From assembly GCA_963714095.1 (NCBI GenBank), contig OY970230.1, positions 831,907 through 895,906 of the forward strand: a stretch of 64,000 bases of DNA, in the 5' to 3' direction. Shown piece after piece: positions 27,257-38,453 of this stretch. The notes under the pieces were generated by a model. The model ran no database searches. It was given only the letters and a program-made list of their open reading frames with translations, and was not told the origin of the DNA. The translations under genes and the position numbers were made by a program. The number at the start of each line of letters is the position of its first letter. Position 1 is the first letter of the stretch. This stretch comes from Candidatus Gottesmanbacteria bacterium. Its GTDB lineage: Bacteria; Patescibacteriota; Microgenomatia; UBA10105; UBA927.

Positions 27257-30200
27257 ATGACTCCGCCCCCGGGCGGTCTTGTCATTTTATTGGGATGGAT
27301 TTTGGTAGCCTCAAAACACAGATTTTACAAGTTTTTACAAGTCCGTACAAAAAATTTTACTCATTCGTACCGGTTTGTACAAGTGGAAACAGGAGCTATT
27401 TCAATTTTTGCGGTATTGTTTATCGGCATCATCGTATCGGTAGGCATTCTTCTTTTCAGGAACAGCATTAAAATTCCGGTTCACCTGACTTCCGTAGACG
27501 CCCAGCAACCGCAAACGACCGTTCCGGTGCCGCTGTCGGCACTGACTGCAGATGTATTTGCAAAGAGCGATTTTTCCGGTCCGTTTCTTGTCGTGGTTAC
27601 CCGGACAGACGGTTCCTATTCCTATGCGGTTGTGGATCAGGGGGGGCTGGTGAACGGTCATTTTGACGGAGACGTGACGGTGCATTATTCCAACGGCGAT
27701 TACGGCATCATAAAGCAACAGGCGGATACGTCCGTTCTGTTTATGACAAAAAAAGGAACTGAGGAAACGGTGTTTATTACGTATCCGCTTATTGCCGCTA
27801 TACGACTCCCTGATGGGACGATGTTGCCGGTTGAATTTACTGATGCGACGATCCGCGACGGAGCACTGGTCGGCGCGTTCCGGTTACTCGAATTTGCTGA
27901 CCAAAAACAGGTGACGGGGTATGTTGCACCGCGGGGTGAGCTCTCGGATTTGACTGCAACACCGACATTGACGTCACCGGATCCGGCAACGCTGTTGACA
28001 GAGCGGGAAATACTGAAATTATATTTTGAAATAACGGGCAATGATAACGCTAATGTGTTGGGTGTTACCACAGACGATAACAGCAATGAAGGATCGCTGG
28101 ATGTTCAACCGGGAGGCATGGTTTCAAGTGCGATTGTGGCTCAAAGAAATGCTAATGACGGCACCGTCCGGCTTGTTTCGGCGCCGGGTACTGCAGTAGC
28201 TTCGACCGGAAATTTATCGCAACTGATTCCGCAGCTTACCAGTGTCCAGGGGGAAGGATTAACCCAGCTTATTTCACAGATTGTTTCCGCGGGCGGAAAT
28301 ATTTCCGGAATCGGCAGTGCCGGTGAAACCGGTGCAACCGGGGCTGCGGGTGCTGCAGGGACAAACGGAACAAATGGGACAAACGGAACAAATGGAGCAG
28401 ATGGCGTTTCCGTTGTCGGCCCTACAGGGGCAACGGGGGCAGGAGCAACAGGTGCCACAGGCGAAGCTGGACCTACAGGAAATGCGGGTGAAACCGGTGC
28501 AACCGGGGAGGCGGGTGCGGGAGGCAGTGGCGGACCAACGGGTGCGACAGGACCGACAGGCGATGCAGGTGAAATCGGTGAAACAGGCGCGGCCGGATCA
28601 ATAGGAAACACGGGAGCAACAGGCGCAAATGGCGAAGCCGGTTTTACCGGTGCAACAGGTATTGCAGGTCCCACGGGTTCAACCGGAGCAACGGGTTCTG
28701 CCGGATTCACTGGCCCGACAGGTGCAACAGGAGCTACGGGAATAACCGGAGGAGCAGGTCCGACGGGATCAACAGGAGCAACAGGAATAGTGGGAACTTC
28801 AGGCCCCACAGGATCAACAGGAGCAACAGGGAATACGGGTGGTGTTGGTGCCAACGGTTCCACGGGAGCAACAGGGAATACTGGTGCTGGCGGAGCCAAC
28901 GGTCCCACAGGAGCTACCGGAACAACGGGTTCTGTCGGAACTAACGGTCCTACGGGAACAACAGGAGCAACCGGTGCAACCGGAACAGCCGGTCCTACGG
29001 GAGCAACAGGAACCAACGGTCCGACAGGCGCAACCGGAGGCGCAGGTGCTAATGGTCCAACAGGTGTTACGGGTTCAACGGGTGCCACCGGTGTTGCCGG
29101 TCCTACGGGAGCAACAGGCGGGAACGGTCCCACAGGAGCTACCGGAGGAGCCGGATCAAACGGACCTACGGGATCTACCGGAACAACAGGATCTGTAGGG
29201 AGTAATGGTCCAACAGGCGTTACGGGTTCAACCGGTGCCACCGGAACAGCCGGCCCTACGGGAGCAACAGGAACCAACGGTCCCACGGGCGCAACCGGAG
29301 GCGCAGGTAGTGGTGGAGCAAACGGTCCCACCGGAACAACCGGTTCTACCGGTGCCACCGGTGTTGCCGGTCCTACGGGAGCAACAGGAACCAACGGTCC
29401 GACAGGCGCAACCGGAGGCGCAGGTGCCAATGGTCCAACAGGTGTCACCGGATCTACCGGTGCCACAGGAGGAGCCGGAACCAACGGCCCCACAGGAGCT
29501 ACCGGAGGGGCAGGCAGCGGAGGAACCAACGGACCCACGGGAACAACCGGATCCACAGGAGCAACAGGAGGAGCTGGATCCAATGGTCCCACCGGAGCTA
29601 CCGGAGGCGCAGGATCCGGAGGAGCCAATGGTCCCACGGGAACAACCGGTTCAACAGGAGCCACCGGTGTTGCCGGTCCTACGGGAGCAACGGGAACCAA
29701 CGGTCCGACAGGCGCAACCGGAGCAACGGGTGTTGCAGGACCGACTGGGAGTACAGGATCAACGGGCGCAACCGGGTCCGCAGGACCAACAGGATCAACA
29801 GGAACCACTGGAGGTGGTGGTACCAATGGACCGACCGGTGCTACAGGGGGAACTGGAACTATAGGTGGTGGAGGACTTGGACCAACTGGCCCAACTGGAA
29901 ATACTGGAGCTACAGGATCTGCAGGAGCAATTGGTGTTACCGGCCCATCAGGTTCAACCGGAGCAACCGGTGTTGCGGGTCCCACCGGAACAACCGGTTC
30001 AACCGGTGCCACCGGAACAGCCGGTCCTACGGGAGCAACAGGAACCAACGGTCCGACAGGCGCAACCGGAGGCGCAGGTAGTGGTGGAGCAAACGGTCCC
30101 ACCGGAACAACCGGTTCAACCGGTGCCACCGGAACAGCCGGTCCTACGGGAGCAACAGGAACCAACGGTCCGACAGGCGCAACCGGAGGCGCAGGTAGTG

Positions 30201-36200: not shown

Positions 36201-38453
36201 CGATTCTACGACTGCAACGTCCACCGCAGCAATCGTGTTGTACGGCTCGGCTGACCCAGCAGGTGGAACCGCAGGTAAAAAAGGCGATATCTTTATGGGG
36301 AATAATCTTCAGCTGGGCTGGAATCAGGGAGCAGCGCAGACAGATTCGATATACGGAGGTACGGATGATATACTTTATTTTGGGGCCACCGCACAAACGG
36401 CGGCTGTAAACCTCGGAGCATCAAGCGCAACAAGTACCGTCAATCTCGGGACTGGAGAAGGCGCCCAGACTATCAATATCGGGAGCGGCACGACGAATGC
36501 TAAAACCATTAATATCGGCACCGGCGCTGCAATGGCAAACGGGATCAATATCGGAGGAACCGGTGCCAACGTTATCGCGATCGGCAATACCCAAACCGCA
36601 GGATCCCATAAGTATCGGCGGAGCCGCCGCTACGAGTACAACAATAAACATAGGGGGAACTACGTCGTCAAACGGCACGATTACGATCGGTCAGGCTGCG
36701 GGTGGTCAATCTATCAATATAGGAACAACTGCCGGCACTGCCACACGTACTGTTAGTATCGGCAGCAGCCCGTCAGCAGGCACTGAGACGATTACCCTCG
36801 GAGGTACGCCTACCAGCACCGGTCTTCAGGTAATCAATGTCGGCGCCGGCGGCAACGTGGCGGTGAACGCGCGTATTGTTAATATCGGCAACGGATCTAT
36901 CAACACGAAAGTGCTTTTCTTCCCGCGCACGGCGAACGTCGGGAGTGAATTTAACTCAAACGGTCAATTTGCCATCGGATCAATGGGTACCGCCGGCACC
37001 ACCAACGGCCGTATCTGGATTTATGCCAGCAACACAATTTTCCGGTGGAATTCCGTCGGAAATTCCGCCGACTATTCCGAATATATTGCCCAGACTGAGC
37101 CTTCCGGCCCCGGCGACGTTATGGTCGTAGACTCCACAGCAACGCAAAGTGTGAGGCGTTACCACGGGCCGTACGAAGATAATATTTTAGGAGTCATAAC
37201 CACGACCGGTCTCGGATACAACAATGATTCCGACGCGCCGGACCATCACAATGACAATCCGGCTTGGGCAAACGTCGGTATGCTTGGCCAGGTATCCATT
37301 AAAGTGTCAAGCGAAAACGGAAGCATCCAGCCCGGTGACCGTTTGACGAGCTCCAGCCAGCCCGGCGTTGCCATGAAAGCCACACGGGCCGGACAGATCG
37401 TCGGGCGTGCGCTTGACAGTTGGTCAAATACAGATCCTACACAGGTTGGGATGATCAAAGCACTCATTTCACCGTCATACTACGATCCAGCTGAGGCGAC
37501 GGCGAGCGACTCGGATTTGCAAACACTCCGGCTTGAAGCGGCAAATTCAACGCCATACGTTGCACAGATTCCGTTTGCTAAAGCAGGGGCTGCTGAAGCC
37601 GCAAGCAACTTCGGCAAATATTCCATTCAGGGAATCGTCAGCAGCGCCGTGAAAGCGATGGGGGAGTTTACCAACCTTGTTGCTGCGAATTTCAAAGCGG
37701 GTGTGGTGCAAACCAACGAAGTGACGACCAATACGCTGACTGCCAATCACGGAGCGTTTGGTGACATCGCCGGAAGCCAGGCGGTCGTGGATTCTCTGTC
37801 AGTCGGTACGATTACGCCGGATGCAAGCGGGGCCGTTCATGTCCACTCGGGCGCGGACGGCAAGGTATCGATTCTGGATTCCAACCAGAACGAAGTTTTC
37901 TCGGTGGACGCGGCAGGGAACGGCTATTTTGCCAGGAACGATTACGGCGGATAAATTGAAAGTCAACCAAATAGAAGGATTGGATTTGTCTTCCTTATTC
38001 AATAGCGCAACACCAAGCTCTGTACCGGTGGCTACGTCTACGGCAAACCTGAGTATATTTGACTGGCAGGTGACATTTAACGATGTGGTCACGTTTGTGA
38101 AGGACGTCATCATTCAGGGTCAGTTGACGATAAATAATACGCTGAAGGTGTTAGGGGACATTTCAATATTCGGCCATATTACCGTGAATACTGATACGGC
38201 AGGCGTTGCGGTAATTCCGAGCTCCGCCACGAGTGTGGACGTGCCGTTTGAACAGCCGTTTGCGACTCCTCCGATTGTTACGATTTCATTGGTATTGCCG
38301 CAGGCGACTGACAGCGCATTTATGGCAGAAGGGGTGCAGGCGGCTGTCACGAACGTGACGACAACAGGATTTACCATTGTACTCAATACGCCGGTACCCA
38401 AAGACCTCACCTACAATTGGTTCGCCCTGGCGGTGAATAACAGGAAAAAATGA
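27257..38453 (+). CDS. Giant collagen-like triple-helix repeat surface fibre protein, about 3,730 aa if contiguous. As assembled it is interrupted by roughly 25 frameshifts and one in-frame stop after position 31100.
   Basis: ATG 27257 has SD AGGAGA 4 nt upstream; the ORF track's upstream GTG at 27227 is less likely to be the true start. Two N-terminal hydrophobic segments are present. The ORF stays open to 31210 and includes about 930 aa of GXY. The GXY frame then hops between all three forward frames (ORFs 31214.., 31596.., 32131..36756 and others). A non-collagenous C-terminal region follows (36100-37954, then frame 3 to the stop at 38453), ending ...[29 protein letters not shown]. Confidence 0.7.
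28320..36110 (+). repeat. Coding tandem repeat array of about 865 Gly-X-Y triplets, built from 108-nt and 117-nt higher-order units.
   Basis: Unit A encodes [36 protein letters not shown]. Unit B encodes [39 protein letters not shown]. Copies are degenerate at 28320-28900 and near-identical in the middle. There are no stop codons in any of the six frames. Confidence 0.9.

Follow-up and report, generated by a model that had tools for sequence, protein, structure and literature searches.

The question raised by a 64,000-nucleotide stretch of contig OY970230.1 (positions 831,907 to 895,906 of the Candidatus Gottesmanbacteria assembly GCA_963714095.1; the whole stretch is called the window here, and positions are counted from its first letter) is whether its collagen-like coding region, which starts with an ATG at 27257 on the plus strand and is crossed by many frame changes, constitutes one gene, and what kind of protein such a gene would encode. 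The reading favored here, which is given a probability of roughly 0.55, is that the region is one very long Gottesmanbacteria-like gene of the Candidate Phyla Radiation (CPR) encoding a membrane-anchored collagen surface fiber that acts as a homotrimeric tether or adhesin.

The start codon is preceded at a distance of 5 nt by an AGGAG sequence, and the single open frame that begins with it extends only over 27257-31210, where it ends at a stop codon (31208-31210, frame 2) that is reached after the collagen frame has shifted. A frame-tracking scan found the Gly-X-Y frame to be constant from 28313 to 31113 and to change 21 times between 31114 and 36110. The unique 3' part has a further four frameshifts, at 36605 (+1, CCC instead of CC), 37932 (+1), 38446 (inside an A run) and 38642, which brings the total to at least 25 frame changes in the gene. 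A second copy of the locus, found through a look-up with the N-terminal protein sequence, is present in contig_55471 (L002; 24,288 nt) of ENA entry ERZ25039479, which is 97-99.6% identical to the window. In this copy the last 1,095 codons of the fiber gene are read in one frame that spans all four 3' frameshifts, which confirms the frame repairs. The gene ends with the TAG at 38898-38900, about 450 bases beyond the end at 38453 that was assigned in the initial annotation, and the latter end is a frameshift artifact. The features of the conceptually repaired gene are as follows.

27257..38900, plus strand: whole fiber gene, about 3,880 codons (frame repair and contig comparison)
27247..27251, plus strand: Shine-Dalgarno-like AGGAG (sequence inspection)
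27389..27457, plus strand: single hydrophobic transmembrane helix, aa 45-67, with a basic segment before it (Kyte-Doolittle maximum 2.95)
27554..28180, plus strand: conserved beta-rich membrane-proximal domain without a Pfam family (profile search)
28313..31113, plus strand: Gly-X-Y region ahead of the first frame change, about 933 aa, interrupted by three natural register breaks of 2 residues each (Pfam Collagen)
31114..36110, plus strand: continuation of the collagen array, with 21 frame changes (frame scan)
29978..35839, plus strand: about 50 tandem units within the collagen array, of 117 nt (39 aa) and 108 nt (36 aa), then units of 99 nt (TRF and unit table)
36112..37006, plus strand: non-collagen Gly/Thr/Asn/Ile-rich xINIGxG (INIG) repeats, with the +1 error at 36605 (repaired translation)
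37007..37489, plus strand: intramolecular chaperone of the phi29 gp12 D4 type, Peptidase_G2-like (profile and Foldseek)
37490..38186, plus strand: helical and beta "neck", with the +1 error at 37932 (repaired translation, AlphaFold2)
38187..38441, plus strand: H-type lectin domain (Pfam H_lectin, Foldseek)
38442..38705, plus strand: Pro/Thr-rich linker, with the frameshifts at 38446 and 38642 (intact reading in contig_55471)
38706..38900, plus strand: C-terminal bacterial SH3 domain (SH3_3) and the TAG (Pfam on the contig copy, window translation)

From its N terminus, the repaired protein consists of a basic tail, one transmembrane helix, the conserved beta-rich domain and about 2,600 aa of Thr-rich collagen, followed by the INIG repeats, the gp12-type chaperone, the neck, the H-type lectin, the Pro/Thr linker and SH3_3. 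The initial annotation had described one giant collagen-like gene of about 3,700 aa with about 2,600 aa of uninterrupted Gly-X-Y and a lectin at its C-terminal end. One giant gene, about 2,600 Gly-X-Y residues and the lectin were all recovered, but the protein is longer (about 3,880 aa), the Gly-X-Y region is broken by the frame changes and the register breaks, and the linker and SH3_3 follow the lectin up to the TAG. The signal anchor and N-terminal part (about 350 aa ahead of the collagen), the xINIGxG region and the ADYSEY...GQIVGRALD domain that it had also named are present as listed above.

A chimeric mis-assembly of shorter collagen-like genes, which had been considered at the outset, is out because intact orthologs of 2,423 aa (syntenic) and 4,320 aa exist, and the region is one gene. 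The locus in Ca. Gottesmanbacteria nzgw410 (L014) is syntenic with the window on both sides and has the same sensor gene directly upstream; its fiber gene, a single open reading frame (ORF) of 2,423 aa, shares the N-terminal domain and the C-terminal module of the window gene and has about 1,200 Gly-X-Y residues. The second ortholog (L023) lies on CAVQFA010000005.1, a 371-kb contig of Ca. Gottesmanbacteria MFD05942.bin.1.211, where 545-13507 is an uninterrupted 4,320-aa ORF; 2,862 of its residues are Gly-X-Y, and it closes, like the window gene, with chaperone, lectin, linker and SH3. Since its repeats are only 65-84% alike, they offer little occasion for collapse or chimerism. A signal peptide takes the place of the anchor domain of the window protein, and the stalk includes at least one non-collagen insert domain. 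Two further relatives, at L017 3-10931 (at least 3,643 aa) and L016 1-7758 (at least 2,586 aa), run off their contig ends and combine the same chaperone module with very long non-collagen N-terminal parts. A scan for relatives, which took one genome per species and used an alignment of 7 closer sequences, yielded 325 relatives. Those with informative names are from Patescibacteria (other titles, such as "uncultured Gammaproteobacteria", were taken as placeholders), and a Gottesmanbacteria protein is the best match, at 67%. Together with the synteny to a Gottesmanbacteria genome, these matches support the CPR origin that had been suspected for this DNA.

The transmembrane helix near the N terminus is predicted to be a signal anchor with the N terminus inside, and a similar helix precedes the conserved membrane-proximal domain in family members. 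When a HMMER profile of this domain was run against 1.84 billion proteins, 67 cluster representatives were retrieved; in most of them the domain begins near residue 55-100, and many are 1,000-3,000 aa long. By this profile the domain defines a clade of what are predicted to be large CPR surface proteins. Nineteen family members with the domain share a plan of anchor and stalk, and several of these also have INIG-like repeats, a chaperone domain, a lectin-like end and a Pro/Thr tail. A long collagen stalk is found in four of the 19, and the others have Gly/Thr/Ser-rich non-collagen repeats. The broad family survey thus places the window gene as a collagen-rich member of extreme length in a family of CPR surface fibers. 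About 280 non-collagen residues separate the transmembrane helix from the first Gly-X-Y triplet. Immediately ahead of that triplet is a Leu/Ile/Gln-rich segment (28214-28285), perhaps a short coiled coil that sets the register of the triple helix at its N-terminal end.

Pfam Collagen (PF01391) matches 28313-31120 with an E of 2.3e-97 and 319 bits against a cut-off of 27.2 bits, so that the identification of the stalk as collagen holds on the intact part alone. After frame repair, Gly-X-Y sequence runs from 28313 to approximately 36110 and amounts to about 2,600 residues, of which 1% are charged and 7% are Pro. Thr occupies the Y position in 62% of the triplets, and X is mainly Ala, Pro, Thr or Ser. 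Passages of a 2025 survey of bacterial collagens describe Thr-rich triplets as typical of these proteins and link Thr to glycosylation (PMC11923368). Within each of the two major types of tandem unit (117 nt and 108 nt) the units are otherwise identical, and the lesions consist of single-base indels and a few garbled patches, at about 31155, 32080, 34200, 34640 and 35850-35950. The terminal units measure 100 nt in the window and are truly 99 nt, as shown by contig_55471. The array occupies about 7.8 kb in the window and would occupy about 7.4 kb in contig_55471 if the two ends of that contig were joined. The near-identity of the 108- and 117-nt units suggests that the length of the stalk changes readily through recombination. 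At 0.286 nm per residue, 2,600 residues would give a predicted triple helix of about 0.7 µm (approximately 0.74 µm). The initial judgment that this is far longer than known bacterial collagen-like proteins stands in comparison with characterized proteins only, since the same survey already mentions collagen polypeptides from bacteria that reach 6,000 aa (PMC11923368). For this reason extreme length by itself is not new.

No Pfam match was obtained for the INIG region in the repaired protein, and it is presumed to form a trimeric beta-solenoid. The INIG segment is common to about 90 of 110 distant homologs, which end in Peptidase_S74, K1-lyase_C, C1q, Gly_rich_2 or DUF5907, modules typical of trimeric fibers. 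A relationship of the window protein to Hep_Hag or YadA, raised in the initial annotation, did not emerge, as neither gave a Pfam match at E up to 1 in the repaired protein. The beta-roll that it had proposed lacks support, the AlphaFold2 model being unconfident in this region.

The ADYSEY domain that follows is, as judged from its profile and its modeled fold, an auto-chaperone of the phi29 gp12 D4 type and of the Peptidase_G2 kind. Pfam Peptidase_G2 (PF11962) matches 10 of 16 close homologs (best E 4e-6), and the window protein itself gives no Peptidase_G2 match at E up to 1. A search of the PDB with the family profile returned two gp12 chains, 3gqh_A (E 5.2e-4) and 6qz9_A (1.2e-3), as well as 28nb_A (0.012), the D4 domain of Dpo31. 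In an AlphaFold2 monomer model of the 779-aa C-terminal part, residues 320-460 have a predicted local distance difference test score (pLDDT) of 70-93, and the best PDB match of the chaperone model in Foldseek is again 3gqh_A (E 2.8e-4, template modeling (TM) score 0.55), with 3suc also found. The D4 domains of gp12 and Dpo31 are trimeric auto-chaperones (PMC13317679; PMC4690869). Peptidase_S74, the identity first proposed for checking in this part of the protein, was tried and rejected: it has no Pfam match at E up to 1 in the window protein, it is not among the families found in the 16 close homologs, and among the relatives it is present only in the distant P0024.

The H-type lectin is recognized by Pfam H_lectin (PF09458) in the window (E 5.9e-9, 36.4 bits against a cut-off of 24 bits), in the contig_55471 copy (4e-9) and in 12 of the 16 homologs. 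Foldseek matched the modeled domain to 4q56_A, 2ccv and 3wmp_A with a probability of 1.0 and also to discoidin II, with TM scores of about 0.5-0.56; a single-sequence PDB search with the lectin region gave no meaningful match. The domain thus resembles Helix pomatia and Helix aspersa agglutinins, SLL-2 and the C-terminal domain of discoidin in both Pfam family and fold. These lectins are trimeric, which would suit a fiber of three chains. Pfam SH3_3 (PF08239) matches the contig_55471 copy with an E of 2.9e-10 and 40.6 bits against a cut-off of 27, and the same residues are encoded at 38706-38897 of the window.

Based on these features, a sequence of events can be proposed in which the chain would be exported while its N terminus stays in the membrane, and the gp12-like domain and the lectin, both trimeric in known examples, would align three chains. 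Folding would start in the INIG region and continue into the collagen helix, from the C toward the N terminus, as in tailspikes and procollagen. Collagen nucleates at the C terminus and zips toward the N terminus according to passages of the survey cited above (PMC11923368). The product would be a flexible homotrimeric tether of about 0.7 µm, which is longer than the cell, and at its far end the lectin (carbohydrate-binding) and the SH3 domain (cell-wall-binding) could catch a partner or host cell or keep it attached. The gene directly upstream, which encodes a predicted sensor with a helix-turn-helix (HTH) and a dCache domain, would regulate the fiber gene. An adhesion function is plausible as a prediction. 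A wider proposal is offered more tentatively: CPR bacteria may own widespread, undescribed membrane-anchored mega-fibers made up of an N-terminal anchor, a variable stalk, an INIG solenoid, a phage-derived auto-chaperone and a lectin, the collagen members of which would be host-catching tethers of 0.7-0.8 µm that assemble from the C terminus, perhaps process themselves at D..E sites, and have a length tuned by recombination.

Several points weigh against the reading as an anchored tether or adhesin. AlphaFold2 modeling of the N-terminal 352 aa (4 sequences) reached a pLDDT of 42, and in the C-terminal monomer model only the chaperone and lectin domains are confident, with the neck unusable and the INIG region likewise unconfident. 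The number of units in the window is only approximate because about 5.8 kb of it consists of near-identical units. The glycosyltransferase genes next to the fiber gene are not conserved at the orthologous loci. Bacterial SH3 domains commonly target the wall of the producer itself. The 4.2 kb just upstream (window 20674-24913) are 100% identical to a short-read contig, a match which indicates that the noise in the window is local. Finally, cleavage of the phage type from the conserved Asp onward would remove the proposed lectin-SH3 binding end. The D4-like domains of P0128, P0145 and P0147 belong beside this last point: these proteins carry two gp12-D4-like domains or one in mid-protein, with the D..E pair kept, and such copies could reflect polyprotein-like self-processing or, as another possibility, non-cleaving trimerization knots.

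The last point leads to the alternative that survives best, although it is itself doubtful: the chain may cleave itself before the invariant Asp, as in phi29 and Dpo31, so that the mature anchored fiber ends in an INIG tip and the C-terminal fragment of about 610 aa is either a pro-piece comparable to the C-propeptide of procollagen or a released trimer that binds walls or glycans. The Asp (37070-37072) and the Glu (37079-37081) of the ADYSEY motif do not vary among 18 diverse family members, and in the alignment they fall on D692 and E695 of gp12. These two gp12 residues are said to be catalytic, reportedly from work by Xiang et al. in 2009. The structure 3gqh, a released gp12 fragment, begins exactly at the aligned Asp. 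The D4 domain of Dpo31, which is lost after expression, was traced from Asp664 (PMC13317679); phage chaperone domains of this kind are removed once folding is complete (PMC4690869). If the D..E site of the window protein cuts, between GNSA and DYSEY, then the lectin-SH3 part would be a removable pro-piece or a released factor and the INIG region would be the mature tip. Against this, the phage domain is the last in its chain, whereas about 470 aa follow the chaperone domain here, and in many relatives a lectin, usually a Pro/Thr linker and often an SH3 domain lie behind it, which suggests a function beyond folding. The internal or duplicated copies with more than 1,000 aa of stalk behind them fit a non-cleaving trimerization knot better, and the residue ahead of the Asp is mostly Ala rather than Ser.

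If the fiber is instead tethered at both ends, with the transmembrane helix in the membrane and the SH3 domain or the lectin bound to the producer's own wall or S-layer, it would be part of the envelope, a coat or "nap" on or around the cell that does not extend toward a host. This arrangement is unlikely, although the C-terminal SH3_3 and the usual preference of such domains for the producer's wall would fit it. Thr-rich collagen-like proteins such as BclA do form surface naps, and 0.7 µm is by estimate close to the circumference of a cell of 0.25-0.3 µm. No direct observation supports a coat, an SH3 domain is present in only five of 16 aligned family members, and a stalk as extreme and variable as that of the orthologs (approximately 1,200 to 2,900 Gly-X-Y residues) is more easily understood as a reaching structure, as in the tether reading.

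It is also quite unlikely that the frameshifts are real in this strain and that the full-length protein is not made, as would be the case for a pseudogene. The number of frame changes and the stop codon that closes the initial frame at 31208-31210 would be expected of a decaying gene, the perfect match of the upstream 4.2 kb to a short-read contig argues that the window is not uniformly noisy, and an exact look-up found the broken ORFs of the window absent from protein records elsewhere. The comparison with the near-identical contig_55471 points the other way, first of all because its 3' 1,095 codons are intact. Over 14 kb, 44 indels and 56 substitutions separate the window from contig_55471, an indel to substitution ratio of about 0.8, and the substitutions are clustered beside indels, which is typical of consensus error. 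The contig_55471 copy is itself broken at other places, with its collagen-array indels falling elsewhere than in the window, and either assembly reads intact some genes that are broken in the other; for instance, contig_55471 has unbroken copies of the neighbors of the fiber gene that are disrupted in the window at 39.2-40.5 kb and 46.35 kb. The repeat units are otherwise identical, and an extra A (ACAGG for ACGG) recurs in both assemblies, in six of 49 units in the window and three of 35 in contig_55471. Because indels are plentiful, substitutions fall at indels and the same extra A occurs in both assemblies, the frameshifts of the window are, as read from this comparison, consensus errors of a noisy assembly and not mutations.

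The recurrent insertion can be followed unit by unit. At window positions 31171, 32543, 33097, 33561, 33670 and 35249, AACCAACGGTCC is read as AACCAACAGGTCC through the insertion of one base, and the same change from AACCAACGGTCC to AACCAACAGGTCC is found in contig_55471 at 1840, 2646 and 4336 in units that are otherwise identical. This one-base insertion is probably a context-specific base-calling error.

A fiber or spike of a prophage, tailocin or other mobile element is most improbable: the phage tailspike type of the chaperone domain, weak tblastn matches to virion proteins of PA5oct-like jumbo phages (E 2e-3), the Peptidase_S74 or K1-lyase_C ends of distant relatives and a circular permutation of window 25190-49844 in contig_55471 could be read in its favor, but the fiber has an N-terminal transmembrane anchor or signal peptide, the repaired protein has no PHROG match, no relatives occur in 2.9 million viral contigs (IMG/VR), no integrase or virion genes lie near the fiber gene in the window, the permutation junction cuts a gene without an att-like repeat, and the orthologs lie among housekeeping genes in conserved synteny. 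The lack of viral-contig relatives and of a PHROG match and the housekeeping surroundings of the orthologs mark the gene as cellular. A mobile-element origin was likewise rejected for want of an integrase, an att repeat and viral relatives.

Several known systems resemble the proposed anchored fiber in part. BclA of the Bacillus exosporium has a Thr-rich Gly-X-Thr stalk without hydroxyproline and a C-terminal trimerizing end, and it forms a surface filament whose repeat number varies among strains. The Thr-rich collagen stalk is common to both proteins, but BclA has tens of triplets and a C1q/TNF-like end and belongs to a spore former, whereas the window fiber has about 870 triplets and belongs to the CPR; the transmembrane anchor, INIG region, gp12-type chaperone, lectin and SH3 domain have no known counterpart in BclA. 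C1q had no Pfam match in the window protein, and one is present in the distant relative P0047. Scl1 and Scl2 are cell-attached homotrimeric "lollipop" adhesins in which a collagen stalk is joined to a globular trimerization domain. Their polarity is opposite to that of the window fiber, as they are attached C-terminally via LPXTG and have the head at the N terminus, and the Scl helix depends on charged residues, whereas the window stalk is nearly uncharged and about 30 times longer. YadA and BadA are long trimeric adhesins with a head, stalk and anchor, and BadA-type fibers reach hundreds of nm, but the stalk proposed here is collagen instead of coiled coil and is anchored by an N-terminal transmembrane helix instead of a C-terminal beta-barrel.

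The resemblance to collectins, C1q and ficolins is an analogy only, in that the same design logic of a trimerizing collagen stalk and a sugar-binding head is found without any sequence relationship; the head here is an H-type lectin as opposed to a C-type lectin, fibrinogen or gC1q domain, and the lengths are very different. The D4 domains of phi29 gp12 and Dpo31, on the other hand, are homologous to the chaperone domain by profile and fold; the window domain follows Gly-rich repeats presumed to be a trimeric beta-solenoid much as D4 follows the beta-helix of gp12, and the Asp and Glu at the start of the domain are conserved. They differ from it in that the window domain is not C-terminal and is part of a cellular membrane-anchored protein. 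The long bacterial collagens of the 2025 survey share the size class and Thr triplets of the window stalk, the survey being based on triplet statistics, and the passages of it that were searched do not mention Patescibacteria or Candidatus taxa (PMC11923368).

A literature search found no publication describing this architecture, its occurrence in CPR bacteria or the internal use of a phage auto-chaperone, in keeping with the initial statement that the protein was not recognized as a described family, yet bacterial collagen-like surface proteins as such are already known. How the ultra-small CPR bacteria (Patescibacteria) find and hold their hosts is largely unexplained. As a conserved gene whose predicted fiber would exceed the cell several times in length and end in modules for binding sugars and walls, with a probable extracellular sensor-regulator encoded next to it, the fiber gene is a concrete candidate for host capture. 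Its product would rank among the longest predicted collagen triple helices, in a lineage without described collagen-like proteins, and a nearly uncharged Thr-based helix bears on how such collagens are stabilized. It would also be a case in which a cellular protein has taken up a folding domain of phage tailspikes, ahead of rather than at the C-terminal end. For annotation, the locus indicates that genes of this type are systematically broken or truncated in assemblies.

The gene immediately upstream of the fiber gene is as follows.

25284..27230, plus strand: 648-aa protein with HTH_17, about eight transmembrane helices, an extracytoplasmic dCache_1 domain and a last transmembrane helix (Pfam, hydropathy)

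The Pfam matches are dCache_1 (9e-27) and HTH_17 (8e-9), and the number of transmembrane helices was taken from hydropathy. The combination of HTH_17, about eight helices, dCache_1 and a final helix is an unusual one-component architecture. The gene ends 27 nt ahead of the fiber start, and in L014 its counterpart lies directly upstream and overlaps the fiber gene. It probably encodes a membrane-bound sensor-regulator of the fiber gene.

Downstream of the fiber gene, a block of about 14.5 kb (38900-53300) is missing from the orthologous loci L014 and L023. The block contains genes for a Dockerin_1 protein (minus strand), two PMT_2-like proteins, a YfhO-like protein, a 652-aa spermine-synthase-like membrane protein, a methyltransferase and GT1 enzymes, and it resembles a surface-glycosylation island specific to the strain. 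That the stalk is glycosylated is a guess, and the role of the adjacent PMT_2 and YfhO genes in such glycosylation was demoted because the block is absent from the orthologous loci. Some genes of this block are also broken by indels in the window relative to contig_55471 (39184-40545, 46352, 46712-46717): the 242-aa dockerin gene and the 392-aa PMT_2-like gene are in pieces, and a break at 46352 divides the 652-aa spermine-synthase-like gene. The segment 41842-46328 is identical in the window and contig_55471.

The order of sequences in contig_55471 differs from that of the window, in that window position 49844 is joined directly to 25190 through about 2 nt of microhomology, without a repeat (L001 7900-7940; L002 18936). 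Position 49844 falls within a minus-strand glycosyltransferase ORF, and both ends of contig_55471 lie inside the collagen array. The circular permutation could represent a circle, a tandem duplication or a chimeric assembly, and the arrangement of the window on the left side is supported by synteny with L014.

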